A stretch of 64,000 bases of DNA from an uncultured Acidimicrobiia bacterium. Lineage in GTDB: Bacteria > Actinomycetota > Acidimicrobiia > Spongiisociales > Spongiisociaceae. The notes below the pieces were generated by a model. The model was not told the origin of the DNA. It worked only from the letters and a program-made list of their open reading frames with translations, and ran no database searches. The DNA lies in NCBI GenBank assembly GCA_958295745.1, contig OY282370.1, positions 1,295,724 to 1,359,723 of the forward strand. The letters run 5' to 3'. A program made the position numbers and the translations under genes. This document shows positions 390 through 49,634 of the stretch, piece after piece; the first letter of the stretch is position 1, and the number at the start of each line of letters is the position of its first letter.

Positions 390-691
390 GAGGTCGGCGG
401 GCCTTCACCGGATCCCGGGCCGAGTCCGCAGGCGGGTTTGATGCGGCGGCCCCCAGAGAACCTCTCCGACGGGAGGGCGGCCCGCCCTTGCTCTCCCCTC
501 CGTCGCGCCGAGTCCTGCCGGGCTTTCTATCTCCTACGCCGTCGAACGACCCTGCCTCGCCCTGCCGGACCGAATCCGCCCAACCCGCCTGTCCCTGCCC
601 TGTTCGACGTTCTTTCCGCCCCCGGACATCCGAGGACCCGGGGAAATGGACGGAGTAACCATTCACGGCTCAGGGACAGACAGTCAGGACC

Positions 692-978
692 CGTTTTTCG
701 CGTTCTCCGCCCAAAACCTCCGGCTTCGCCGGGCCCTGCCCCCGCCGCCACCGATCCACCGTCTTCGGGCCGCCGGGGGCGTGTCCGCCCGGCTTGTGCC
801 CGATCCGTCTCAGCACAGCTAGTCCGACCGCCCCCGCCCCTTGGAGGCCCGCCCGGGAAGATGACCGAAGGGTCGGCGCCTCTGGGCCGGGGAGTGGTCT
901 TCTATGACCCCAGTGATCCGCGGAGCCACTGGAATATCTGTTATCCAACACTATACACCCTACCTATGACAATTTCAA
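692..978 (-). ncRNA. Candidate promoter-driven structured RNA/leader element, copy A (orphan, transcribed leftward)
   Basis: Minus-strand -35 TTGAAA (973-978), 17-nt spacer, -10 TATAGT (950-955). Downstream hairpin CCAGTGG..CACTGG, then GGTCATAGAAG, then a conserved core ending CGTTTTTCGCGTTCTC at 692-707 (plus-strand representation). Roughly 85-90% identical to copy B over the core by eye. Confidence 0.4.
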
Positions 979-1032
979 TACCCTTGTTCTCCATCCTCGG
1001 TTTCTGCTTGGAGGGAAATCCGCAGGGGGTGC

Positions 1033-3026: not shown

Positions 3027-3176
3027 CAGCGCCCACCCGCCGCCGCCCGGAATCCTAACCCCCGGCACTGGGAAGCTGGCGGCCCGGGCTCAGGAAGGCG
3101 GCTTCCGGAACAGGCTGCCAAGCCGTCGAACCCTCTACTCCTGCCAAGAAAATGGGCGTAAACCGGAACAAGGGTA

Positions 3177-3545
3177 TTGTTGTTGTCACATCAATGCTGT
3201 ATAGTGTTGGATAACAGACCCCGCAGCGGTCCGGAAGCTGCGGTCATAGAAGTCGTCCCATCCACAGAGACGCCGTCGCTTCGGACAGGTTACGGCGGCG
3301 GTCCGGAATGGGCAGGACGGTTGAACTTGCTGTGCTGAGACGGATCGGGCACGGGGCCGGGCGAGCACGCCCCCCGCGGCCCGAAGACGGTGGATCGGTG
3401 GCGGCGGGGGCAGGGCCCGGCGAAGCCGGCAAGTTTCGGGCGGAGAACGCGAAAAACGATTCTGGGCCGGTACATCTGGTCGTCTCGGCGGCCCGATTGC
3501 GAAATAGTTCTCTTACCAGAACAGGCTGGTCCACCGGCCCGGATC
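3177..3545 (+). ncRNA. Candidate promoter-driven structured RNA/leader element, copy B (orphan, transcribed rightward)
   Basis: -35 TTGTTG (3177-3182), 17-nt spacer, -10 TATAGT (3200-3205). Hairpin CCGCAGC..GCTGCGG co-varies with the copy A hairpin. GGTCATAGAAG follows, then the core GCTGTGCTGAGACGG...GAGAACGCGAAAAACG (3329-3458). Confidence 0.4.
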
Positions 3546-5487: not shown

Positions 5488-6708
5488 TCAGCGGCGGAGC
5501 TCCTCCAAACGGTCCTCCATGGTCGCACGCAGGCGGTCGGTGACGGGCGGGTCGAAGCCGATATCGGAGGTTCGCTCGATCCAGACGGCGGCCTTGTCGC
5601 ACAGCGCGGCGATCTTGCGGGCCGCCAAGCGGGGCGGCAGGCCGAGGGATTCGGCGAAGCGTATCCAGTCGGATCCCCTGATGCGGTTGCGGCGGCCGTC
5701 CACGTGTAAGGCCTGCAGATCGTTCGGGATATAGGGGCTCGTGCTGATCAGGTCGTACACCGGGGTCGGCTCCACCATCTGCTGAGCAGGCAGCCAACGG
5801 ACGCTGATGTTCTTGGCGTGCATGTCCCCGTTGGCGATCAGATACGAAAAGGCGGCCAGCCGAACCAGCTCCAGCGCCGCCGGTTTCGGGGCCGACGCCA
5901 CCGCCGTCACCGCCCCCGCGGCCTGCCGCAACGACAGGCGGTACTTGTCGGCGGGCCATCGTCCGGCCAGCTGGCACACGTCCTCTTGGGCGAGGCGCAC
6001 CACCCGCTCCCCTTCCCGCACCCGGTCGAACCGCTCCACCAACAGCCCGGAAACCCCGTCTCGGTCCTCGACGACCTTGTGCGGAGGCACCCGGAAACCG
6101 CACCCTTCGGCCATCCCCAGAAAAAAAGCCTCGTTCTCCACGAGCCGCGGATAGAGCGGCGGGGTCAGTTTCAGGATGGCCGGCCCGCCCCCGATCTCCG
6201 CCGGAAAGGAAATCAACCCATCTGACAGCTTGTCCTGCACACCGGGGAGAGCCGTATCCAGCTGCGGGTCGGAAACCGCCACCGAGCGGGCGAACAGCTC
6301 TCGGAACGACACCCCGCCTGGATCAGACACCCCCGACCCTTCCCCCGGATCGCGGGGCCGCTCCCCGACCGGAACCACCGTGACGTTGCCCACCGTATCC
6401 CCGCCAACAGCCAGCAACAAAGACAGCTCGTCGTCGAGGGAAGTCTTGACCGCCCTGACAACCGCCTGCAGCCGCACTCCCTCCGGCAGGAGCCCGGCGA
6501 AGAAGGCCGGCACCGACCCGCCCGCCGTGATATACGGCTCGTCGCGGACCGGCAAGGTAGAAGCCACCCCCCGATAGCCGCCCCGCCTGTAGGAAGGGTC
6601 GTAGTCGAACTCGACATGATCAGGCCGCCGCCGCAGCCGTCCGGCCAGGATGCCGCCCTGATAGACATCGGCCGCATCTACCGAAGCTATTTCTGCCGGG
6701 TCGATCAT
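5488..6708 (-). CDS. hipA: HipA-family Ser/Thr kinase toxin
   Basis: N-terminal GNVTVVPVG, P-loop-like LPGVQDKLS and the catalytic LIANGDMHAKNISV motif (D-x-H-x-K-N). The ATG at 6708 overlaps the hipB stop (ATGA). Confidence 0.75.
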   Translation of the reverse strand: MIDPAEIASVDAADVYQGGILAGRLRRRPDHVEFDYDPSYRRGGYRGVASTLPVRDEPYITAGGSVPAFFAGLLPEGVRLQAVVRAVKTSLDDELSLLLAVGGDTVGNVTVVPVGERPRDPGEGSGVSDPGGVSFRELFARSVAVSDPQLDTALPGVQDKLSDGLISFPAEIGGGPAILKLTPPLYPRLVENEAFFLGMAEGCGFRVPPHKVVEDRDGVSGLLVERFDRVREGERVVRLAQEDVCQLAGRWPADKYRLSLRQAAGAVTAVASAPKPAALELVRLAAFSYLIANGDMHAKNISVRWLPAQQMVEPTPVYDLISTSPYIPNDLQALHVDGRRNRIRGSDWIRFAESLGLPPRLAARKIAALCDKAAVWIERTSDIGFDPPVTDRLRATMEDRLEELRR

Positions 6709-9288: not shown

Positions 9289-11385
9289 TCAAGCCCTGAG
9301 GTCGAACCTGTTGACGGCGGACGTATCCCGGGAACGAACATCCACGTCCAGGGTCGTAAGCCCTCTCTCCTCTATGGCGGCCTCGAATTCCTGGAGAGTG
9401 ACGCGTACGCCGTAGATGTTGAACTGGTCGTTCAGGTCATAGGCGTAGGCATAGAGGTCGGCGGTGACGAACTGGTTGAGATCCGTGTCCAATTCCAGGA
9501 TGTAGAGGCCTCGGCGGGGGCCGGTCCGATAGCCGTTGACCCAATAGTGGGGGACAGGGTCCGCCTCGATGTTCGTGCCGACCACCTCGGCGCCGATCTC
9601 TTCCACGCCGGAATACTCGGAGTCGCGCTGATACCGGGCGGTGGCTATCCCCCGGGAGCTGGTATGGCGGCGGTACCGGTCCTCCCCGACGCCCAGATCG
9701 TCCTGCGAAGAGAACAGTATCCTCTGACCGCGCACCGGATCGCCGTACTGGTCGGTGAGCACCGCCTGGACCGAGTTCACAGCGCCCCGGCCCTCGTCGG
9801 AGGCCACATGGAACACAGGCTTCTGGACGATCCGCAGCATGGTGGGGACCGCGCTTTCTTGGGACCACGTCACCCGGACGTCACCGCCGCCGTCCGACGC
9901 GCCCAGGGTGGTCCTGTCCCGCACCACCAAGTCGGACACCGACACGTCCAGGTCGAGGGTCACCACGTCGTCGTTCTTGCTCTTGTCGGGATCCCTCTCC
10001 TGGAACCTGAAGGTCAGCGAACCCGACGAGTCGGTGCTGTAGTTCCTCGACTCGGAATCCTTCACCACCCCGTTGGCTTCGATGGTGCTGGCGACTCGGA
10101 GGGTTCTGCGCACCGGCACAGGGTCGCCGTCGCGGTCCACCACTTGCAGCGTGAAGGTGATCCGGTCGTCGAAAGCGAGCAGCGAAGCGCCTTCCTTCAT
10201 GTCGTCGGTTATTTCCAGGTCCACGGGGGGTTTGGAGGTGCGCACCACGAACGTACGCGCCTCCGCCTTGTCCTCGTCGTACTCTTCGTCGATGGCGCCG
10301 GTCCAAGCCCACAGCGTGAGGCTGTCGTCGATCCGGACGGCGTCGACGGCGTTGCCGAACCCGTCGGTCGTGAGGTCCGCATGGTCGATCACGCAGGCCA
10401 GGCCCCCCAACAGCCCGCCCAGGTTCTGGATCGAGGACGAGCAGGTGCCGTCGCGGTCGAAGGGGTTCTCGGCGTCCAGATCGACCCCGAAGAGGTCTAC
10501 GTACGCGTCCGCGATCGGCCTGTGGAAGCGGTCCCGCAACGAGATCAGAACGTCTATCTGCTCGCCTTCCACCACCTTGGTGTCCACCGCTTGGACCGTA
10601 ACCCCCGAAGGGCGGGCGTTGGTGTGGGACAAAGCCCTGGTTATGAAGGAGGCCATCTGCCCCCTGGTCACCGGAGCATCAGGGGAGAAGGCCGTATCGG
10701 AGGTGCCTTTGGTAACCCCCAGCTCATACAGCCGGTAGACGGCGGTCTCCACCGTGCGGGGAAGGCCGGACAGGTCCTCGAACAGGCTGTCGTCCGAGGT
10801 GACTTTGGTGATGTCGGTTCCACCTTCCCCGAGATCGGCCTGTTCCAGGAACCCGGCCAAGAACAGCGCCATGTCCCTGCGGGGGATCCGCCCCCCGGGA
10901 TCGAACCTCTCCGTCGAGGCGCCGCTCATGATCTTCAGCTCCACCATGCGGTTGATGGCGTCCTGTACCTCTTCGGGCAGGTCCACGATGTCCTTGAACC
11001 CCTGGTCTTCGGCGTCCGGCAGTCGGACCCCGGCGGGCCGGGCCGCCCGCGACAGGAACAGCGCCATCTGCTGGCGGGTCACCAAATCATTGGGGGCAAA
11101 GACGAAGCGGGACTTGCCCTGGGTTATCCGGTAGTGGGTCAGGCAGTCGATGGCCTGCTCGGCGCCGAGGCCGGCGGTGTCGCCGAAGCCGGCCGACTCG
11201 AGGGCGGGGCCCAGACAGGCCGAGAAGTCGGGCAGATGATCGGGCTCGTCCACGGCGGCCGAGGCCGGAGACACCCCCGCCGCCAACAGCGAAGCCGCCA
11301 GCAACAGCGCAACGACCGCACCCGACAAGGGCCGGGGGCGCATCTGTTCCATGGACTCCCGCCGCATCACGGTAATCGCATCCAT
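9289..11385 (-). CDS. Secreted cell-surface protein with three N-terminal SLH domains (paralog)
   Basis: Signal peptide, three SLH repeats (..TRQQMALFLSRA.., ..RRDMALFLAGF.., ..RGQMASFITRAL..). The start could be the ATG at 11385, 11352 or 11343. Confidence 0.7.
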   Translation of the reverse strand: MDAITVMRRESMEQMRPRPLSGAVVALLLAASLLAAGVSPASAAVDEPDHLPDFSACLGPALESAGFGDTAGLGAEQAIDCLTHYRITQGKSRFVFAPNDLVTRQQMALFLSRAARPAGVRLPDAEDQGFKDIVDLPEEVQDAINRMVELKIMSGASTERFDPGGRIPRRDMALFLAGFLEQADLGEGGTDITKVTSDDSLFEDLSGLPRTVETAVYRLYELGVTKGTSDTAFSPDAPVTRGQMASFITRALSHTNARPSGVTVQAVDTKVVEGEQIDVLISLRDRFHRPIADAYVDLFGVDLDAENPFDRDGTCSSSIQNLGGLLGGLACVIDHADLTTDGFGNAVDAVRIDDSLTLWAWTGAIDEEYDEDKAEARTFVVRTSKPPVDLEITDDMKEGASLLAFDDRITFTLQVVDRDGDPVPVRRTLRVASTIEANGVVKDSESRNYSTDSSGSLTFRFQERDPDKSKNDDVVTLDLDVSVSDLVVRDRTTLGASDGGGDVRVTWSQESAVPTMLRIVQKPVFHVASDEGRGAVNSVQAVLTDQYGDPVRGQRILFSSQDDLGVGEDRYRRHTSSRGIATARYQRDSEYSGVEEIGAEVVGTNIEADPVPHYWVNGYRTGPRRGLYILELDTDLNQFVTADLYAYAYDLNDQFNIYGVRVTLQEFEAAIEERGLTTLDVDVRSRDTSAVNRFDLRA

Positions 11386-11610: not shown

Positions 11611-12414
11611 ATGGCGACCATCGACACGATCAGCGACCTCATGCGTGTACTGGACACGCATCCCGAGTGGTTGGAGGCGATGCGCGCCCGTTTGTTGACC
11701 AGCGATGTTCTGGAAATGCCCCGACGACACGTGGAATCTACCAACCGTCGCCTGGAGGCTGTCGAACGACTCCTAGAAAACCACGAACAACGCCCAACAA
11801 ACATCGAACGACTCCTAGAAAACCACGAACAACGCCCAACAAACATCGAACGACTCCTAGAAAACCACGAACAACGCCCAACAAACATCGAACAGCTCCT
11901 AGAAAACCACGAACAGCTCCTACAGGGGGACAGCCACTACTTCACAAACGTCTACCGTCGGCTTGACCGCCAATCCGCTGATACGAGTTTCATCAAAGGC
12001 GAGCTGTTCGAAAGGAGGGCCCGTCGGTTGGCACAGGTTCTCACCTACGAATTGGGGTTGGCATGGAAGAGAACCCTGACCGACGAGGAAATACTGGAAA
12101 TGATCAGCAGTCGGCAGGACACCTCCGGCATCGACGCCCGCCGCCTGTACCGTCTTCGGCGGCTTGACCTAACAATTGAAGCCGTCGACCAGAAAGGCAG
12201 TCCCTGTTACATCGCCGGGGAGGTGTCTTACACCGTCGACGAGCGGGATACGGTCCGGGCCATCGACGGGGCGCGGCTCCTGACCGGGCTGACCGGACTG
12301 GCCGCCCATGCCGTGGTGGTCGGAACCCGCAAGGACGACCGTATCCAATGCCAGCTCGATGCCGGCGAGGTGTTCTACTGGGAATTGGAGGACGACGACC
12401 TACTGCCGAGGTGA
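11611..12414 (+). CDS. Hypothetical protein with a coiled-coil tandem-repeat region and a C-terminal domain of unknown function
   Basis: ATG at 11611 preceded by AGGGGAAG. Three perfect 14-aa repeats (ERLLENHEQRPTNI). GC content is lower than the surroundings (about 55% by eye). Confidence 0.55.
   Translation: MATIDTISDLMRVLDTHPEWLEAMRARLLTSDVLEMPRRHVESTNRRLEAVERLLENHEQRPTNIERLLENHEQRPTNIERLLENHEQRPTNIEQLLENHEQLLQGDSHYFTNVYRRLDRQSADTSFIKGELFERRARRLAQVLTYELGLAWKRTLTDEEILEMISSRQDTSGIDARRLYRLRRLDLTIEAVDQKGSPCYIAGEVSYTVDERDTVRAIDGARLLTGLTGLAAHAVVVGTRKDDRIQCQLDAGEVFYWELEDDDLLPR
11767..11926 (+). repeat. Perfect 42-bp tandem repeat, three full copies plus a diverged partial fourth copy
   Basis: cgactcctagaaaaccacgaacaacgcccaacaaacatcgaa occurs three times exactly, inside the CDS 11611-12414. 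Confidence 0.9.
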
Positions 12415-12684
12415 CCGCAGCCCCCCCTTGCTTTGCGCCTCCTATAACCCCCGCCGAGGCGGTGATGTGTTCCTCCAATGATCCACCCTGGAGAATACTG
12501 ATGATTGCCATTAGACGGGTTGATGACCGTTGAATTACCCACCCACCTTCCCCGCGTTTTCGCAAAGCCTCGCAATAATTGGCAGGAAGGGGACCCCTAT
12601 GGTTTCGTGCCTACCGGCGCCGAGGGACCGGCCCTCTCCCGAAGGCGCGGCGGGTTGGGTGGAAGATCCCTGTACCCGGTTTCT

Positions 12685-15600
12685 CTATCTTCGGATTAGG
12701 TAGACGGTCGACAGCTGCTTGTCGGTGGCCGTCTCCTCGCGGTGGGCGGAGTAGAGGGCGCCGGTGGTCCTGTCGAAGACGGTATGCCAGCCGAGGCGCC
12801 CGGCGGCCTTCACCCCAAGGAACTCTTCATCCACGGAGCTGTCGTCCGCCCAGCCGCCGGAGGGCCTATTGAACAGCACCACCGAACCCCGGAAGTCGCC
12901 CTCCTGCCGGTGGAGGCGCCCGGCGGCCACGGCCGAACCGTCGCCGGTCATCGTCACGAACCGGCCGAACAGATCCTGAGCCCGCCCCCGTCCGGCCTTC
13001 AGAACATCCGGGGCATTGCTGTCCGCCCAGCCGCCGGAGGGCTTGGTGAACACATGTATCTCACCGTTCCGTCCTTCGTCCTCGTGGGAATTACCGGCGG
13101 CGGCCACCACATCGCCGGCGCCGGAGAGGGCCACGTGCGCGCCCATCCGCTGCTGCGCCAAGGCGGTGGGGGCGGCCAGCACCGCCGTTTCCTGGATCGG
13201 TGAGGTTACCGCGGTGTCGCTGGTGTTCCATTCCGACCCGGACCTGACATATATGTAGGAAGATCCGGCCTCGGCGGTGCTGCCGATCTTCCTCTCGGCG
13301 CCGCCCACCGCGATCACATCGCCGTCGTCGGACACCGACACCGCCCTCTCCCGGCCGAACTGCATGGTGCTGCCGGAGACGGCGATGGTGGTGCTGGGCC
13401 ACAGCACCGCCCGGCCCGCCCCGTCGTCGTCGTCCCAGCCGGCAGTGCTGTTGTCGTTCTTCTCGAACACGTAGGCCAGGCCGTCTGATTCATCCAGCGT
13501 CGAGCAGGCCACCGGGGCGCGGGGATCTCGAGAGGTGACCACCACCGTGTCACCGTCTTTGGAGACCGCCACCCCGTAGCCGAACATGTGGTTGCGGCCG
13601 GAGCTGCTGGAACAGGCCGCATGATCGGTGCCGGCCACCCTGGCCTGCAGGGTGCCGGCGGTGCCCAGCCCGGAGTTGGTGAGGGTGGCAGCGGGCTGGA
13701 TGCCGGTTCCTTCCCAACCGCCGGAGGGCTTGGTGTAGATGAACACCCGCCCGTTGTCGGCGGCGGTCGCTCCGCTGGCCATTTCGTCGACCCTGGGCGC
13801 CCCGACCACGATGGTGTCGCCCGCGATGTCCACGTCGTATCCGAAATAGTCGTTCTCCTTGGGGACGGGGGCCGTCAGGATCGCCGGGCTCGCATCGGCC
13901 ATGCCTTCGTATACATACACCCGGCCCGCCTTGGGGCATTCTTGGATCGGGGTGCCCGAGTTGCCGTCGTGGTCGCAGTTGAAGGCCTCGTAACCGGCGC
14001 CGACCACTATCACACCGTTGTCGGCGGCGATGGCCTGCCCGAACTGGGCTTCGGCGCCGGCCGCCGCCCCGCCCGGATGGTCCAGGCTGCTCCATCCGTA
14101 GCGGAGAGCGATCTGGCCTGCGCCGGATGAGGAGGCGTGGTAGACCCCCACCCGTACATGGGCGGCGGAGTCCAGGCCGTCTTCGAAGTCGGAAAGCGAT
14201 CCCGACCCGTCCAGGGCGGTCAGGAAATCGTTGCTGTCGTAGGAGGCCAGCAGCACCTTCTCCGCGGCGGAGATCACGAACCGGTTGTCGGACGCGTCGT
14301 GGGCCAGGAGCCGGCCGGACAGCGGGGCGTCGGCGGCTTCCATGTCCTCCGTCCAGTAGTGATACAGGCGGTTGGAGGTGAACCCCCCGCCGGTGGCCCA
14401 GATGGTCTCGATGACGCTCTGGCCGGAATCTCGGTGGTAGGTGAGGGAAGCCGCGCCTGCGACGGCGGCCACCTGGTTGTCCGAGGCGGCGGCGCCGGTG
14501 AGAGTCCTCTTGCCGCCGCTTTCCGCGGAGGTAACGCCGCTGCTGTCCGCCCATATCCCGCTCGGATCGTCGGACAGGAAGGAAATGGTGTCGGTGGCGG
14601 CGGCCGTCTGACCGTACTGGTCGACGATCCTGGCGGAGACGGTGTTGGAGGCGCCCGCGCCCGACGAGGAGGCCTCGGTGTAGTCCGCCGTCTTGGCGAT
14701 CACCAAGGCGCGGGCCGCCGACGCTATGTCCTGCCCGCTCACCTCGTACTGGAGGTCGGCGTCGGGGGCGTTGGTGGTTCCGGCCACCACCGGCAGGGTC
14801 CTGCCCGAACGGGCGGCGGTGCTCGTCGTGAACGTCACCCGGGCGGTCTCGCCGGTGGCGGCGGTTCCGGCCTGGGTGAAGGAGAAGGAAGCCCTGCCCT
14901 CCTGATCGGTGGTGTAGCTGTCGGTCTGCGGCGAGCCGGCGCTGCCTCCCACCGGAGTTTCCGTGGAGGTGACGGTCACCCGCCAGCCGCTCTCGCGCAC
15001 CGGCCTTCCGGCCGAGTCCGACGCCTGCAGGGTGAAGGTAACCGTCCTCGACCGGTCCAGATTCAGATGGGTCTGCCCGGGCATCAGGTCGTCGGTCAGC
15101 AACACCTGAGTGGGCTTCGCCGAGGCGGTGTCGTCGGCCACCAACCCGCCCAGCAGGGTGATCCGGCTGATCCCCCTGGACGACGAAGCGTAGGTGTCCA
15201 CCCGGACGCGGGTGACCACAGGATTGGGCGTGGGTTCCTTGCCGGTGTAACCCAGCTCCTTCTCGAAGTCGGCCAGCCTCACCGGCCCGTCCAGGCCGTT
15301 CAGTTGGTCGTTGCCGTCGTATCCGACGAGAATGACCCCGCCCGACGCATCGCCGATGATCAGCCGGTTCCTGACCGTGTCCTTTTCCAGCAGCCGGCCC
15401 GAAACCGGCCCGGAGGCCTCCGTCGCCCAGTAGTGGGCCATCTGCTCGGGCGTCGAGCGCAGGTCGATGTCGTCGGCGGAGGTGCCGGCGTCGCCGGCGT
15501 CGGTGAATGTGGCCCAGATGTTCTCGATTCCGTCGGCGCCGGAGTCCCGGCTGTAGGAAAGGGTGGCCCTGCCCGACCGGTTGGTGGTGCGGGTCAACCG

Positions 15601-20627: not shown

Positions 20628-22448
20628 TTACTCCACGGTGACGCTCTTGGCCAGGTTCCGCGGCTGGTCGATGTCGCGGCCCAGCAGGCGGGCGGTGTGG
20701 TAGGCGAGCAGCTGGAGCGGAACTGCGGCCAGGATCGGGGACAGCAGATCGGCGGTGCGGGGCACCCGCAGGACACGGTCCGCCACCAGGTCGATCTCTT
20801 CGTCGCCCTCGTAGGCCACGGCTATGACCATGGCGCCCCGGGCCTTCACCTCCTGGAGGCTCAGCAGCAGCTTGCCGTATAAGTTCTGCTGGGTGGCCAC
20901 CGCCACCACCGGGGTGCCTTCGTCGACCAGCGCCAGCGTGCCGTGCTTCAGCTCCCCTGCGGGCATGGCCTCCGCATGTATATAGGAGATCTCCTTGAGC
21001 TTGAGGGCGCCCTCCATAGCGCTCGCGTAGTCGAGTCCCCGGCCTATGTAGTAGACGCTGGACGCTCCGGCCAGCTCTCCGGCCAGCAGGCGAAAGGGAT
21101 CCTGATCAGCGAGGACGCGGGCCGCCTTGTCGGAGAGGGAGTGCAGCTCTTCGACCAGCTTCCGCTCCTGGTCGGGGCCGGTGACGCCCCGCGACCGCCC
21201 CAGCCGGAGGGCCAGCAGGCATTCCCCCACCAGCATGGCCAGGTAGGCCTTGGTGGAGGCGACGGATATCTCCGGCCCCGCCCACGTGTAGAGGACTTCG
21301 TCCGCTTCCCGGGCCAGGCTGGACCCCACCACGTTGGTGAGGGCCAGCAGGCGGGAACCGCGCCGGCGGGCCAGCTTGGCGGCGGCCAGCGTGTCGGCGG
21401 TTTCACCGGACTGGCTGACGGCGAGCGTCAGGGAGCGGTCCCCGATGAGAGGATTCGAATAGCGCAGCTCGTGGGCGTATGCCACCTCGGTCGGCACGGC
21501 GGCCAGCCGCTCGAACATGGTCCGCCCGACCAGGCCGGCGTGGTAGGCGGTGCCGCAGGCGGTGATCCATATCTTCTGCACGTCCGCCGGATCGCCTTCC
21601 GCCCATGACAGGTCGGCCAGCGCCTTGCCGCCGTGGATGCGGCCGCCGAGGGTGCGGGCGATCACCTCGGGCTGTTCGTGTATCTCCTTGAGCATGAAGT
21701 GGGCGAAACCGGCTTTCTGAACCGATTCGTTGTCCCATTCGGCGGTAAAGGAGCGCCGCTCGACGGGACGGCCTTCGAGGGTCTCGATCCGGGCGCCGTC
21801 CCTGGTCACCTCGGCTATCTCACCGTCTTCGATGATCAGGAACTCGCGGGTGTAGTCCAGCACCGCCGGCATGTCGGAGGCCAGGAAGGTCTCCCCCTCT
21901 CCGAGTCCCACCACCAGAGGGCTGATCATCCGGGCCGCCACGATCCGGCCCGGTTCGCGGGAGGTCATCGCCACCAAGGCGTAGGCCCCGGAGGCCCGGC
22001 GCACCGCCCGGCGGACGGCTTCCTTCAGGTCTCCTTCGTACTCGAGGGCCAGCAGATGGGCAAGCACCTCCGTGTCGGTCTCGGAGCGGAACCCGACTCC
22101 GGCGCCCTCCAGCTCGCTCCGCAGGGCCCGGAAGTTCTCCACGATCCCGTTGTGCACCACCACGAAATCGCCTGTGTTGTCGCTGTGAGGGTGGGCGTTG
22201 CGGTCGGAAGGCGCCCCGTGGGTGGCCCAGCGGGTGTGCCCGATGCCTGCACGGCCGGGAAGCGGCGCCTCCTCCAAGCGGGCCAGCAGCCGATCGAGCT
22301 TGCCTTCGGCCTTCGATATGGCCACCGACCCGTTGTGGGCCACGGCGAGGCCGGCCGAGTCGTAACCCCGGTATTCCAGACGGCGCAACCCGTGGACCAG
22401 AACTTCCTGCGCCGGCCGGGGACCCACATAGCCGACGATCCCGCACAT
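20628..22448 (-). CDS. glmS: Glutamine--fructose-6-phosphate aminotransferase
   Basis: MCGIVGYVG N-terminus (catalytic Cys2) and two SIS domains. GGAGG lies 8 nt upstream of the ATG at 22448. Confidence 0.9.
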   Translation of the reverse strand: MCGIVGYVGPRPAQEVLVHGLRRLEYRGYDSAGLAVAHNGSVAISKAEGKLDRLLARLEEAPLPGRAGIGHTRWATHGAPSDRNAHPHSDNTGDFVVVHNGIVENFRALRSELEGAGVGFRSETDTEVLAHLLALEYEGDLKEAVRRAVRRASGAYALVAMTSREPGRIVAARMISPLVVGLGEGETFLASDMPAVLDYTREFLIIEDGEIAEVTRDGARIETLEGRPVERRSFTAEWDNESVQKAGFAHFMLKEIHEQPEVIARTLGGRIHGGKALADLSWAEGDPADVQKIWITACGTAYHAGLVGRTMFERLAAVPTEVAYAHELRYSNPLIGDRSLTLAVSQSGETADTLAAAKLARRRGSRLLALTNVVGSSLAREADEVLYTWAGPEISVASTKAYLAMLVGECLLALRLGRSRGVTGPDQERKLVEELHSLSDKAARVLADQDPFRLLAGELAGASSVYYIGRGLDYASAMEGALKLKEISYIHAEAMPAGELKHGTLALVDEGTPVVAVATQQNLYGKLLLSLQEVKARGAMVIAVAYEGDEEIDLVADRVLRVPRTADLLSPILAAVPLQLLAYHTARLLGRDIDQPRNLAKSVTVE

Positions 22449-22916
22449 GTGCGCCTCCAACCCACTCGTTCGACAACCACGGTAGACACTACTAGGGACA
22501 GGGCGGCATATAGCGTCTCACGGCAGGCCGGTGCGGACGGTCAAGCGCTGTCTGCCCCAAGGGTTCGGGGCAACCCGTTTCCGAGGAAGGCGGCCCCTGC
22601 CCACCCTCCTACTCACAGAACCCGCCTTCGCTCGGCATCCTGCAGGTCAGTCTCGTCGTTGCCGTAAAGCGCCTGGCCAATCGGGGTCGGTAAAACCGGG
22701 CTTCGCACCTCGAGAACGCGAAAAACGACCCACCTCCGCCCCCTTCGGGCCCGGCCCCCACCTCCTCCACTCCGTTTGAACGGTCGTCTTGGGCGTGCGG
22801 GGCTTGGGAACCCTCGGCGCTCAACACGACCTGGAATGATCACCGCCCTCCGGAGCAGAAGTGATATTTGTGATATCGGTATATATTGTTATACAACATT
22901 CTTGGGACAAGTTCAA
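22449..22916 (-). promoter_or_regulatory. glmS promoter plus about 430-nt structured leader (element copy C)
   Basis: Minus-strand -35 TTGAAC (22911-22916), 17-nt spacer, -10 TATAAC (22888-22893), with the shared upstream GAACAAGGGT motif. The 5' hairpin ATCACTTCTGC..GCGGTGATCAT is shared with copy D. GGGCCGGGCCCGAAGGGGG is present, and the GAGAACGCGAAAAACG box appears in inverted orientation (plus-strand 22712-22727). Confidence 0.45.
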
Positions 22917-22944
22917 GACCCTTGTTCGAAATCTCTTCGGTTTT

Positions 22945-24357
22945 TCAGCCGAGCTCGCCTGCCACGACTTCTGACAGCTCCAGGGCGGTCGAACGGGCCG
23001 TCTCCATGGTGGGGGCCTCGACCATCACCCTGACCACGGGTTCGGTGCCCGAAGCTCGAACCAGGATCCGCCCGTCTTCGCCCAGCTCCGCTTCGGCGGC
23101 CCGAACCGCCTTCCACACCCGGGCCGCCCCGTCCAGGTCCTTGGACCGGACCGGCACGTTCTCCAAGACCTGAGGGAACTCGACGAGAGCCTCCCTGCGC
23201 AGGTCGCGTATCGGGCGCCCGGCGGCCGCCGCCACCTCCAGAAGCCGGACGGCGGTGCGCAGCCCGTCCCCGGTACGGGCCCGATCTAGCTGGATCACAT
23301 GGCCGGACTGCTCCCCGCCCAGGAAAGCCCCATGCCGCAACATCGCCTCCAGCACGTACCTGTCGCCCACCCGGGTCTCGATCAGCTCGATGCCTTCCCG
23401 GCGCATGGCCCGGCGGAACCCCAGGTTGGACATGACGGTGGCCACCACCCGGTCGAGGCGCCCCAGGCGTCGCAGGTGACGGGCGATGACGGCCAGGATC
23501 ACGTCGCCGTTGGCGGCCGCACCGTCCTCGTCCACCACGATCAGGCGATCGGCGTCCCCGTCGAAACACAGCCCGATCCGCCCTCCGGCCGCCGCGGCCA
23601 GGCTCTCCGGGCAGGTGGCCCCGCACCCGTCGTTGATGTTCATGCCGTCCGGCGCCCCGAAGTACTCCTCCACGTCGGCGCCGAGTTCTTCGAACAGGCG
23701 CCTAGCCGCGCCCGAAGCCGCCCCGTTGGCGCAGTCGAGGGCCAGCCGGAGGTCTGCCAGCCCGCCCGCAGGGGTCTGGCGGAGGATGCCTTCCAGATAA
23801 CGATCGACCGCATCCGGGAAGGGACGGCGGAGGCCGATGCCCGCCCCGGTCGGCGCCTTCCAAGGCCCTCCCTTTTCCAGCCGGCTCTCGATCTCCCCCT
23901 CTGCGCCGTCGTCCAGCTTGCCGCCCCGCTCGTCGAAGAACTTGAAACCGTTGTCGGGGGCGGGATTGTGGGAGGCCGACACCATCACCCCGAGGCGGGC
24001 GCCCAGATCGGAGACCAGATCCGACACCCCGCCCACCGGAACGACCCCCGCATCGATGGTGTTCACCCCCACCGAATGGAAGCCGGCCTGCAGCCCGGCG
24101 CCGAGCATCTCCCCGGAGCGGCGGGTGTCGCGCCCCACCAGGACCGCCCCTCCGCCGATCAGCTCGCCGGCCGCCCGGCCCAAATCGAACGCCAAGGGCA
24201 CGCCGAGGTCGAGATTGGCCACCCCTCGGATGCCGTCGGTGCCGAACAGTCGGCGGGATCGGACGGGCCCGGAAGTCGGGGCCCCTGGAAGAACGTCTGG
24301 CTCCGCCGATTGCGGCCCCTGTCGGCCTGCCCCTCGGCGCCCAGGTATTTCAGTCAT
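22945..24357 (-). CDS. glmM: Phosphoglucosamine mutase
   Basis: ..LFGTDGIRG.., the active-site region SASHNPAPDNG and the ..GDGDADR.. motif. The N-terminal approximately 25 aa may be an extension, because the start is uncertain. Confidence 0.85.
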   Translation of the reverse strand: MTEIPGRRGAGRQGPQSAEPDVLPGAPTSGPVRSRRLFGTDGIRGVANLDLGVPLAFDLGRAAGELIGGGAVLVGRDTRRSGEMLGAGLQAGFHSVGVNTIDAGVVPVGGVSDLVSDLGARLGVMVSASHNPAPDNGFKFFDERGGKLDDGAEGEIESRLEKGGPWKAPTGAGIGLRRPFPDAVDRYLEGILRQTPAGGLADLRLALDCANGAASGAARRLFEELGADVEEYFGAPDGMNINDGCGATCPESLAAAAGGRIGLCFDGDADRLIVVDEDGAAANGDVILAVIARHLRRLGRLDRVVATVMSNLGFRRAMRREGIELIETRVGDRYVLEAMLRHGAFLGGEQSGHVIQLDRARTGDGLRTAVRLLEVAAAAGRPIRDLRREALVEFPQVLENVPVRSKDLDGAARVWKAVRAAEAELGEDGRILVRASGTEPVVRVMVEAPTMETARSTALELSEVVAGELG

Positions 24358-26043: not shown

Positions 26044-26568
26044 TCAGACGGCGGCCGGGAACAGAATCGTCCCTATGTACCAGCCGAGGACGCCGGCGGC
26101 GGCGAGGAAGCTGTTGCGGGGGTGCCTCATATCGAAAAGGGCGTCCGCCACCACCCGCAGGGCCAGGAAGAACCATAGGAGCGACAGGGCGAGCAGAGGT
26201 ATGCGCAACAGGTCCGCCCAGACCGCCGCTATCAGCGGGAGGAAGGCGACGTGGGCGAACCCGACCAACCGGAAGGCCGAGGCCAGACTGCCGTAGCGCT
26301 TGAACAAGTGGACGCCCGCCGCCCAGACCGCCCCGGCGGCCAAGCCCGCCCGCACGATGCTCCACAGCGCCGCCGACGCCGCAGCGACCACCGACGGGGC
26401 GGCCAGCACGGGGAGCACCGAGACGAGGACGATGACCACCACCGCGTTGCCGGTGGCGTAGTTGTCATGGCGCAACGACGTGTAGAAGGACCTGTCTAGC
26501 CGCCCTGCGCTGAAGATCTGACCGAACACGGCACCTCGCACCGAAGACTCGGCAGAGGCTACCAGCAC
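26044..26568 (-). CDS. Integral membrane protein, Yip1-domain-like (hypothetical)
   Basis: 174 aa with 4-5 predicted TM helices and no recognisable catalytic motif. Confidence 0.45.
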   Translation of the reverse strand: MLVASAESSVRGAVFGQIFSAGRLDRSFYTSLRHDNYATGNAVVVIVLVSVLPVLAAPSVVAAASAALWSIVRAGLAAGAVWAAGVHLFKRYGSLASAFRLVGFAHVAFLPLIAAVWADLLRIPLLALSLLWFFLALRVVADALFDMRHPRNSFLAAAGVLGWYIGTILFPAAV

Positions 26569-26575
26569 AAGGGTA

Positions 26576-27154
26576 TTGACTTGTCGCAGCTACTCGATAT
26601 GATGATAACTGTAGAACAATACAAACATCACTTCCGCAGTCCGGACAGCGGTGATCATATGAGCGAGTCCCGCACCGGGACGAGCAAAACTAGCTGTGCC
26701 GAGACGGATAGGGCACGGAGAGGGAACACGCCCTCTCGCCCCTGAGACGGTGGATTGGCGGCGGCGGGGTGGGGCCCGGCGAAGCCGGGGATTTGGCGGG
26801 GAGAACGCGAAAACCGGCGGCTGGCGGGGGGCAACACCGGAAGGACGGGGCTTGGTTCAACGGTGGGGCGGTCGAAGCGACCTAACCTTGCGCCTACCGC
26901 AGATGCACTCTCGAAAGGCTCGGCTACCTACGATCCCGTCCTACCGAGGCCGCCTTGAGAACCCAACCCGGTTTCGGCCCGACCAAGGCCTTTCCAAAGC
27001 GTCGTGGGCGACGCCAGCGGCCCCCGGGCAGGCCGGCTCGGCGTCGGCCGCCGGGCAGGGGAGCCCCAACTCGACGATGGGTGTTACCACCCGGACGGCG
27101 GATGATCCGTCCTGAGGTCGCTTCGATGGGGCGTCCGTTGGTCATGGCAAGAAT
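26576..27154 (+). promoter_or_regulatory. Promoter plus about 550-nt structured leader (element copy D) in front of the low-GC two-gene module
   Basis: -35 TTGACT (26576-26581), -10 TATGAT (26598-26603), upstream ACAAGGGTATTG. 5' hairpin ATCACTTCCGC..GCGGTGATCAT. Core TAGCTGTGCCGAGACGGATAGGGCAC...GGCCCGGCGAAGCCGG...GAGAACGCGAAAACCG at 26693-26816. Confidence 0.45.
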
Positions 27155-49213: not shown

Positions 49214-49634
49214 GGGCCAACTATAGGAGTCGGCTATACGGCCAGACGCAGAGAAAGAGCCGAGAGAAGCCGTGCGGCCCGCCGTCGAACGGACATCCCG
49301 AGGCGCAAACCGGCCGCCTGCTCGGGCCCGGCACCCCTACGGCACCCGGTACGCATCGCTTAGGGCTGCTTCCTCCCGGACCTGACCCGGTTCACGAAGG
49401 TTCCGCTGCGCAGGACCCGGCCGTCAATACCGCGTGCCGGCCGCATACCGGCGAGATGCCGACGCCCTTCGACGGGCTTCCGCCCCGCATGTAGAGGGTT
49501 TCGGGTAGAGGGCACCCCTAGCGCCCCGCGTAGCACGGCCGAATCCGGAGTATACAGGTCATCCAGGAAGAGCACTGAACAACGAAGATGGCTCGGTCCC
49601 GTGTATTGCTCAGCACATCTAGAATCACCCCCCA

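Follow-up and report, generated by a model that had tools for sequence, protein, structure and literature searches.

In Enterobacteria, glmS is controlled by small RNAs through the GlmY/GlmZ-RapZ system, in which GlmZ pairs at the glmS ribosome-binding region and activates translation. Another type of control is exerted by the glmS ribozyme, a leader RNA activated by glucosamine 6-phosphate (GlcN6P). It represses glmS by self-cleavage (PMC2258182). Putative mobile promoters are homologous promoter-bearing intergenic sequences that are found before unrelated genes (Matus-Garcia et al. 2012, PMC3488235). All three classes bear on the spacer between glmM and glmS in a stretch of 64,000 nucleotides (nt) from an uncultured Acidimicrobiia bacterium (contig OY282370.1, positions 1,295,724 to 1,359,723), the whole of which is here called the window.

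The glmS ribozyme is absent from this spacer and present in related genomes. The spacer carries copy C of a repeat family of which the window holds four copies (A to D). With confidence only slightly above even, it is read as a composite formed after loss of the ribozyme, in which C would be an independent repeat or small-RNA unit and not a leader that senses GlcN6P. C is regarded as independent, and not as a dedicated sensor, because the element is absent 5' of glmS in two ribozyme-less relatives (L059 and L102), because the sequence downstream of it is unconserved and because most copies of the family appear to stand alone.

The glmS ribozyme in the window and in its relatives

The position directly 5' of the glmS ATG is the usual slot of the ribozyme, and position alone does not confer membership. 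The Rfam model RF00234 found no match in the whole window at the Rfam gathering score (37 bits), and none in 22300-23100 even at E<=10, where the junk matches listed scored 13-16 bits. At the gathering score, cmscan of the whole window returned only a signal recognition particle (SRP) RNA and six tRNAs. The ribozyme core (A|GCGCC cleavage site, P1 hairpin, GACGAGG, UAUCGAA..UUCGGCGGAU, P3/P4) is not present in order and spacing in the spacer, which contains neither P1 nor P2. The first-pass annotation of this DNA had likewise seen no recognisable ribozyme and no P1 hairpin, and on both points these searches agree with it. It had also pointed to three words reminiscent of the ribozyme, which it held to be out of order. 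The words do occur, GGCGCUU at 22673-22667, GACGAG at 22657-22652 and GGAUGCC at 22640-22634, and their order is in fact that of a real ribozyme, squeezed into 40 nt; they are read as chance matches.

The relatives' glmS loci were reached via GlmS homologues and comprise about 220 kb of related sequence around glmS in all; ribosomal protein S11, used as a second route to further genomes, led back to the same strain only. The closest named homologues of the window's GlmS are 74-75% identical and belong to Acidimicrobiia, including Candidatus Spongiisocius. Ribozyme-bearing relatives served as positive controls and gave 85.8-99.1 bits with RF00234: L094 scored 88.5 (GlmS identity 84%), L095/L096/L097 85.8 (80%), L099 99.1 (79%) and L101 94.8 (77%); L099 and L100, both at 79% GlmS identity, count as members of this group. 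In these relatives 214-240 nt separate the end of the ribozyme from the glmS ATG, and the ribozyme core is nearly invariant among them. No ribozyme is present in L057 (GlmS identity 99%), L058 (91%, in a different genomic context), L093 (88%), L059 (87%) and L102 (86%). The absence is based on Rfam for L058, L093 and L059, on near-identity to the window for L057, and on a lineage-specific profile together with sequence inspection for L102.

A degenerate or relic ribozyme was considered and rejected, on the basis of Rfam at E<=10, a lineage-specific nhmmer profile and blastn comparison of the spacers. The profile, built from the lineage's own ribozyme and the spacer downstream of it, found no match in the five ribozyme-less spacers, and pairwise blastn of the window spacer against the ribozyme-bearing leaders returned only the ribosome-binding-site region in common. 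Because the ribozyme is present at 77-84% GlmS identity and absent at 86-100%, with no relic, it is taken to be ancestral and to have been lost in the window's subclade without leaving a detectable trace.

Two further observations were made in these relatives. L094, L095, L099 and L101 share a conserved CCCUCCGAUCGG motif between ribozyme and start codon, about 85-100 nt upstream of the glmS ATG; it contains the anti-Shine-Dalgarno sequence CCUCC, could pair with the GGAGG ribosome-binding site, and is absent from the window. The L058 region, part of an 874-kb contig from the sample that also yielded the 99% strain, carries a second glmS, 91% identical to that of the window, together with two type II hammerhead ribozymes (41-43 bits) at L058:5247-5355 and 6231-6300, amid mobile-element-like genes (N6_N4 methylase-HNH).

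Copy C and the remainder of the glmM-glmS spacer

The two genes lie on the minus strand and are separated by 496 nt (22449-22944). Pfam PGM_PMM domains are on record for the L057 orthologue of glmM. The features of the locus, all on the minus strand, are as follows.

20628..22448, minus strand: glmS coding sequence, 606 amino acids (aa), ATG at 22448, with GATase_6/7 and SIS domains
22454..22458, minus strand: glmS ribosome-binding site GGAGG
22486..22495, minus strand: CTAGTAGTGT, putative -10 (TAGTGT) of a proximal glmS promoter, conserved in ribozyme-less genomes
22496..22711, minus strand: GC-rich spacer without conservation or similarity to the relatives' spacers, holding the three ribozyme words (22673-22634)
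22709..22932, minus strand: element copy C, type 2, full length, with promoter, 5' module, middle hairpin, G-rich tract and terminal box
22712..22727, minus strand: terminal box of C, CGUUUUUCGCGUUCUC, the exact reverse complement of GAGAACGCGAAAAACG, the box that ends A and B
22729..22773, minus strand: G-rich tract of C, GGAGUGGAGGAGGUGGGGGCCGGGCCCGAAGGGGGCGGAGGUGGG, including a GAA-capped hairpin; aligned with the same tract of all copies, that of L097 being closest
22839..22865, minus strand: 5' hairpin of C, AUCACUUCUGC-UCCGGA-GGGCGGUGAU, with CACAAAU before and CAU after, the family hallmark
22888..22916, minus strand: sigma-70-type promoter of C, TTGAAC (22916-22911), 17-nt gap, TATAAC (22893-22888)
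22947-22945, minus strand: glmM stop codon TGA, the upstream limit of the spacer

The membership of C in the family is supported by two profiles and a covariance model. A profile made from A, B and D only matches C at 22932-22822, that is, over the promoter and the 5' hairpin (E 2.8e-9), the remainder being weak. A second profile, made from type-2 copies of other genomes (L093a, L093b and L097x) and built on the transcribed part only, finds its best window match at 22883-22709 (E 1.9e-13, model positions 4-195). The covariance model of the 5' module (R1) has exactly four matches in the window, and C is the best of them, with 60.1 bits at 22886-22827. The earlier statement that the spacer carries a copy of an element common to other loci is confirmed by these matches, and C is assigned as a full-length member of the family, of its second subtype. 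In C the box is inverted with respect to the element and reads on the plus strand (22712-22727); the reversal that the first-pass annotation had described is thus borne out by an exact motif.

The 75 nt of the spacer nearest to glmM have a GC content of 36%, against 67% for the window. The -10 of C lacks the final T, alone among 12 copies, and the promoter was not listed by a promoter scan that demands T at position 6. With a start near 22881 the leader would measure about 433 nt, in agreement with the roughly 430 nt estimated before. That the promoter of C fires straight into glmS, as had also been stated, is unproven.

Between the box of C and the proximal motif, about 215 nt cannot be aligned with the relatives' spacers, including that of L093 (88%), despite L093's own element there. 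The leader as a whole shows no excess folding stability against shuffled sequence (z = 0.16) and its element part gives z = -1.28, values that are uninformative in sequence of 60-67% GC. A scan of the spacer found no terminator-like site between C and glmS. The small open reading frames (ORFs) of the spacer were considered as toxin-like genes or leader peptides; none is credible, and they match no Pfam family.

Close to the gene, all four distinct genomes that lack the ribozyme (window, L093, L059 and L102) have a motif of the form CTAGTA(R)(K)GT at 37-50 nt from the ATG; their spacers are otherwise unalignable. The motif can be read as a TANNNT -10 (TAGTGT, TAGGGT or TAATGT), and in the window, as CTAGTAGTGT, it is probably the -10 of glmS's own promoter. 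In the ribozyme-bearing relatives the sequence C-TAGACT or C-TACACT precedes the cleavage site by about 30 nt; Smith-Waterman comparison of the CTAGTAGTGT region with the promoter 5' of the relatives' ribozymes gave no homology significant against shuffles.

Two observations concern the same neighbourhood in relatives. In L093, three tandem copies of CCCTGAACAGGGACAACCTCCCCGAATATCAC lie between element and glmS (L093:9765-9945), with no equivalent in the window; each is promoter-like (CTGAAC, 17 nt, TATCAC) and has a CCCUGAACAGGG hairpin. The glmS neighbourhood is also an insertion hot spot in the lineage (L099:12014-12385, L101:8278-9456 and 12185-13555), with a bAvd/23S_rRNA_IVP gene between glmS and acpS, and with Fic-domain genes and a PIN-domain gene between glmM and glmS or after glmS.

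The repeat family and its terminal box

The family RNA is modular and structured, about 175-260 nt long. A sigma-70-type promoter is found in all copies, with a -35 of TTGNNN followed by conserved (T)TGTC and a -10 of TANNNT or CATANT. The 5' end is a CA-rich single strand up to CACAAAY, which leads into a hairpin of 6-9 bp with a UCCGGA cap, followed by (G)AUCAU. This 5' hairpin covaries. Over 10 copies, pairing extends to 94% of cells, with compensatory changes at four pairs; not one of 500 shuffles reached the observed percentage paired or the covariation score, while 12 reached the count of compensatory pairs, and slid controls were only 29-57% paired. The middle domain varies between copies; that of type 1 forms a rod-like hairpin of about 75 nt, whose internal loop is flanked on both sides by GACGG(U)GGAU, and the same fold is predicted independently from all four type-1 sequences. 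The 3' module consists of a G-rich tract (GGNGGNGGNGGGGG), a GAA-capped hairpin (often CCCGGCGAAGCCGGG) and the box. Weak hairpin-plus-U-rich features surround the box, and a canonical terminator was not found after C. Similarity between A and B stops no more than 3 nt from the box, which therefore marks the 3' edge of the unit.

Searches for the family elsewhere gave little. Rfam, applied to copies A, B and C at the gathering score and at E<=10, returned junk only, the best match being Actino-ugpB (23 bits, E 0.37) downstream of A. No match to the family was found in plasmid and phage collections. The pattern GAGACGGAT-N25-55-AGACGGTGGAT had 56 matches in 185,579 species genomes, all by chance, and is too strict, as the L059 copy has one mismatch per half. 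A second pattern, GGCGAAGCC-N6-30-AGAACGCGAAAA, had 32 matches in JGI metagenomes and one in viral contigs, all coding or chance, and these scans do not establish that the family is absent elsewhere. The family is an uncatalogued, lineage-specific, promoter-bearing structured-RNA repeat without an Rfam match.

The three other copies in the window, all of type 1 and strongly similar to one another by self-comparison and repeat finding, are the following.

681..997, minus strand: copy A, stand-alone, convergent with the gene that ends at 389 (nhmmer E 2.9e-95)
3158..3469, plus strand: copy B, convergent with a YjeF gene (nhmmer E 2.4e-95; inverted repeats I1, I3 and I7)
26561..26827, plus strand: copy D, divergent from the truA-rplM-rpsI-glmM operon (nhmmer E 5.3e-68)

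The 13-mer GAGAACGCGAAAA of the box occurs exactly four times in 64 kb, against 0.05 occurrences expected, once per copy. The box is 13-16 nt long; in the window its motif is confined to the 3' edges of the copies, with the promoter 190-260 bp upstream. The form GAGAACGCGAAAA terminates type 1 (A, B, D, L059x and probably L102x), and its reverse complement, UUUUCGCG(U/A)UCU, terminates type 2 (C, L093a, L093b, L095-97x and roughly L099z). Only the box is flipped between the types; the adjacent motifs keep their orientation.

This arrangement raises the question of pairing in trans. The stand-alone type-1 RNAs (A, B and D), through the box GAGAACGCGAAAA(AC), would pair with the type-2 box, including that of a C transcript running into glmS, and a duplex of 13-17 bp would trigger processing or alter the stability or translation of the glmS mRNA. 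Such a trans-antisense mechanism, a GlmZ-like small-RNA substitute made of unrelated parts, is considered quite unlikely. In its favour, only the box is inverted; in addition, the 13-nt core is identical in all four window copies, A and B are perfectly complementary to C over 16-17 nt, with a perfect 17-bp duplex predicted between the C box and B, both box forms are conserved across genomes, and type 1 is seen only in the ribozyme-less clade (window, L059 and L102). The duplex between the 3' end of B and the C leader has a predicted energy of -85 kcal/mol against -64.8 +/- 5.5 for shuffles, but such values take no account of intramolecular structure, and GC-rich sequences pair with little specificity. 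Moreover, the only genome examined for both box types is that of the window, and the box, about 265 nt away from the start of glmS, is distant from the ribosome-binding site. A type-1 copy is present in L059 and L102, yet neither has one of type 2 upstream of glmS, and type-2 copies also occur where no gene follows (L095-97).

The box of L093 behaves in a particular way. Direct repeats of TTTTCRCGWTCT bracket both type-2 copies of this genome, at L093:9489-9500 and 9720-9731 (plus strand) and at 13948-13937 and 13716-13705 (minus strand). One repeat of each pair lies just upstream of the -35 and the other at the 3' edge, about 231 nt apart, and these are the motif's only four matches in the 21.8-kb locus. 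They are not target duplications, because the sequence is identical at both loci. Bracketing of this kind was not seen in the window, L097 or L099.

A second box directly upstream of the -35, about 231 bp from the terminal one, would suit an activator or repressor site or DNA looping, and hence a regulon acting at the level of DNA. The box, possibly also the palindromic TCCGGA-centred sequence that closely follows the start site, would then serve as operator, and the copies would be co-regulated promoters answering one signal, with the orientation of the box irrelevant. In keeping with this, the box is equally conserved in both orientations and TCCGGA is nearly invariant at the hairpin centre. 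The explanation is nevertheless very unlikely: the stems beside TCCGGA change in sequence yet stay complementary, as RNA but not an operator would be expected to do, the box lacks palindromic symmetry, each window copy has a single box placed far downstream of its promoter, and no candidate regulator was identified.

The setting of the copies is also informative. A and B are inverted partners around a Glyoxalase_3/luciferase-like gene pair and would fire outward into the 3' ends of the convergent genes; none of the ORFs that follow them is credible or belongs to a Pfam family. Within the window a downstream gene is present for C (glmS) and perhaps for D (a 73-aa ORF without annotation, about 330 nt away), and for neither A nor B. 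In relatives, L059 and L102 have a copy downstream of acpS and, upstream of glmS, AT-rich inserts without the element. L095-97 have a copy between two opposite-strand genes, with no downstream gene. Copy L093a, of type 2, is upstream of glmS in the 88% relative, and L093b lies between CoA-transferase and aminotransferase genes, where the window's strain has no copy. L099 has one copy beside rplQ and a truncated one, L099y, directly before an 800-aa gene. Every orientation relative to neighbours is found among the relatives' copies, those of L059/L102, L095-97 and L099 being convergent or divergent. The copies thus appear to be mostly stand-alone units and not gene leaders.

Copies within a genome are more alike than copies of different genomes: the cores of A and B are 96% identical, the 5' hairpin of D is nearly identical to that of C, and L093a resembles L093b. 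Because positions vary among close relatives and copies are alike within a genome, the pattern indicates turnover or homogenisation of copies. Insertion boundaries could not be defined by comparing filled and empty sites, the spacers of the 88% relative being too diverged to align.

Some remnants and insertions were seen near the copies. A diverged partial copy lies in the glmM-glmS spacer of L094 (L094:8693-8882, minus strand), in antisense orientation to glmS, with the ribozyme about 750 nt further downstream. At window:1064-1097 (minus strand), just upstream of copy A and inside the terminal part of the Glyoxalase_3 ORF, a short fragment (GGGGTCATAGATATCCACC) is similar to the 3' side of the 5' hairpin plus UCAUAGA (weak nhmmer match, E 0.27). 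Downstream of D, at window:27155-27939, two relatively AT-rich ORFs of 73 and 188 aa without Pfam family are present in the 99% strain and not in the 87-88% relatives at the same site; they are probably a recent insertion.

Variable positions and within-genome likeness are what would be expected of a selfish or mobile repeat, which would carry its promoter along, spread or be homogenised by recombination and make an RNA without function of its own; its presence before glmS would be an accidental insertion into a vacated spacer. Close relatives indeed differ in where the element lies (before glmS in the window and in L093, after acpS in L059 and in L102), the L093b site is empty in the window's strain, both L093 copies are bracketed by box repeats, and the region upstream of glmS is a hot spot for insertions in the lineage (Fic, PIN and AT-rich inserts). 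This explanation is unlikely all the same. Pairing in the 5' hairpin and in the type-1 rod is maintained by compensatory changes, which argues for selection on the RNA; terminal inverted repeats, target-site duplications and a transposase were looked for and none was found; the copies are old and diverged (C and A share about 50% identity), with no recent burst; and the plasmid and phage collections hold no match.

The first-pass annotation had proposed that the structured leader shared with other loci is a replacement control that senses a common signal. In its strictest form, a new cis-acting sensor, a GlcN6P-responsive or related riboswitch or ribozyme would have taken over from the glmS ribozyme, as the position 5' of glmS, the loss of the classic ribozyme and the type-2 copy at the same place in L093 might suggest. 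A sensor of this kind is extremely improbable: the element is also found at loci that have nothing to do with amino-sugar metabolism and no gene downstream, and it is missing 5' of glmS in L059 and L102. The broader proposal fares badly on the same grounds, since other copies are mostly not leaders, the leader's unique part of about 215 nt is not conserved, the fold has no excess stability, and a conserved -10-like motif stands about 40 nt from the ATG. Taken together, the interpretation of the first-pass annotation is partly supported.

Other features were recorded away from these loci. A tandem array at window:11720-11941 has a 21-nt register and the 42-nt unit TCGAACGACTCCTAGAAAACCACGAACAACGCCCAACAAACA, with related repeat families over 8.5-17 kb; in relatives, SLH-domain surface proteins are encoded at the orthologous loci. 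Five clustered tRNA genes lie at window:47019-49727, together with a large-type bacterial SRP RNA (136.9 bits, 49270-49538). In L096, an ALIL pseudoknot, the frameshift element of the IS3 family (92 bits), lies beside an rve transposase gene (L096:15499-15615).

Fate of glmS control and comparison with known systems

According to the preferred reading of the spacer as a composite, the ancestral glmS ribozyme would have been deleted and its feedback control would have gone with it. The upstream half of the spacer (22932-22709) would then be one repeat copy with its own promoter, followed by the unconserved stretch of about 215 nt, by CTAGTAGTGT as a proximal -10 and by the ribosome-binding site. 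glmS would be fed by the proximal promoter and by read-through from glmM, and the effect of C on it would amount at most to added read-through transcripts with a long 5' untranslated region. A replacement for the ribozyme control, if there is anything of the kind, is not visible in the spacer. The promoter activities, the read-through and the lack of a sensing role are what we infer from the sequence.

Several points weigh against this reading. With no terminator-like site between C and glmS, C transcripts may well be the main glmS mRNA, as the first-pass annotation proposed. L093 (88%) likewise has a type-2 copy upstream of glmS, and copies adjoin the glmS-acpS operon in six of eight distinct genomes, a hint of non-random association. 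The proximal promoter is based on one 10-nt motif, whose homology to the promoter of ribozyme-bearing relatives failed the shuffle test. A perfectly conserved box in two orientations is left unexplained if C is an independent unit, and start sites, 3' ends and read-through are all inferred.

The locus can now be set against the systems it recalls. Small-RNA paralogue families, REP/REPIN elements (repetitive extragenic palindromes) and miniature inverted-repeat transposable elements (MITEs) share with this repeat that they are short, non-coding, multi-copy, hairpin-rich, intergenic and homogenised within a genome. The repeat described here differs from these in that each copy has a promoter and the box exists in two reverse-complement forms, and no terminal inverted repeats, target duplications or transposase were seen.

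The glmS ribozyme (RF00234) occupies the same slot as C, 5' of glmS and downstream of glmM, with the difference that nothing in 22449-22944 matches it. Its loss is clean and datable, given that genomes with GlmS 77-84% identical keep the ribozyme and those at 86-100% have none, and it lets one ask directly how glmS control fares once the ribozyme is gone.

The GlmY/GlmZ-RapZ system acts in trans and independently of a ribozyme, and the pairing of type-1 and type-2 boxes, if real, would be loosely similar to it. No match to the GlmY/GlmZ family was found in the window by cmscan, the box lies about 265 nt upstream and not at the ribosome-binding region, and there is no evidence here of an adaptor protein or a decoy RNA. 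If it is true that the two box forms pair, a new trans-RNA circuit would reach cell-wall precursor synthesis; in a clade that deleted its ribozyme, glmS would have come under a small-RNA network specific to the lineage, functionally analogous to GlmZ and built of unrelated parts.

If the boxes do not pair, the locus would be an example of promoter-bearing repeats colonising the spacer left by a lost riboregulator. Like the mobile promoters, the family has several homologous promoter-bearing intergenic copies in one genome, one of which stands before a housekeeping gene that lost its regulatory leader. Unlike them, a covarying transcribed sequence of about 175-260 nt travels along, and most copies here have no downstream gene. 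The family would accordingly seem closer to the concept of a mobile promoter than to that of a riboswitch.

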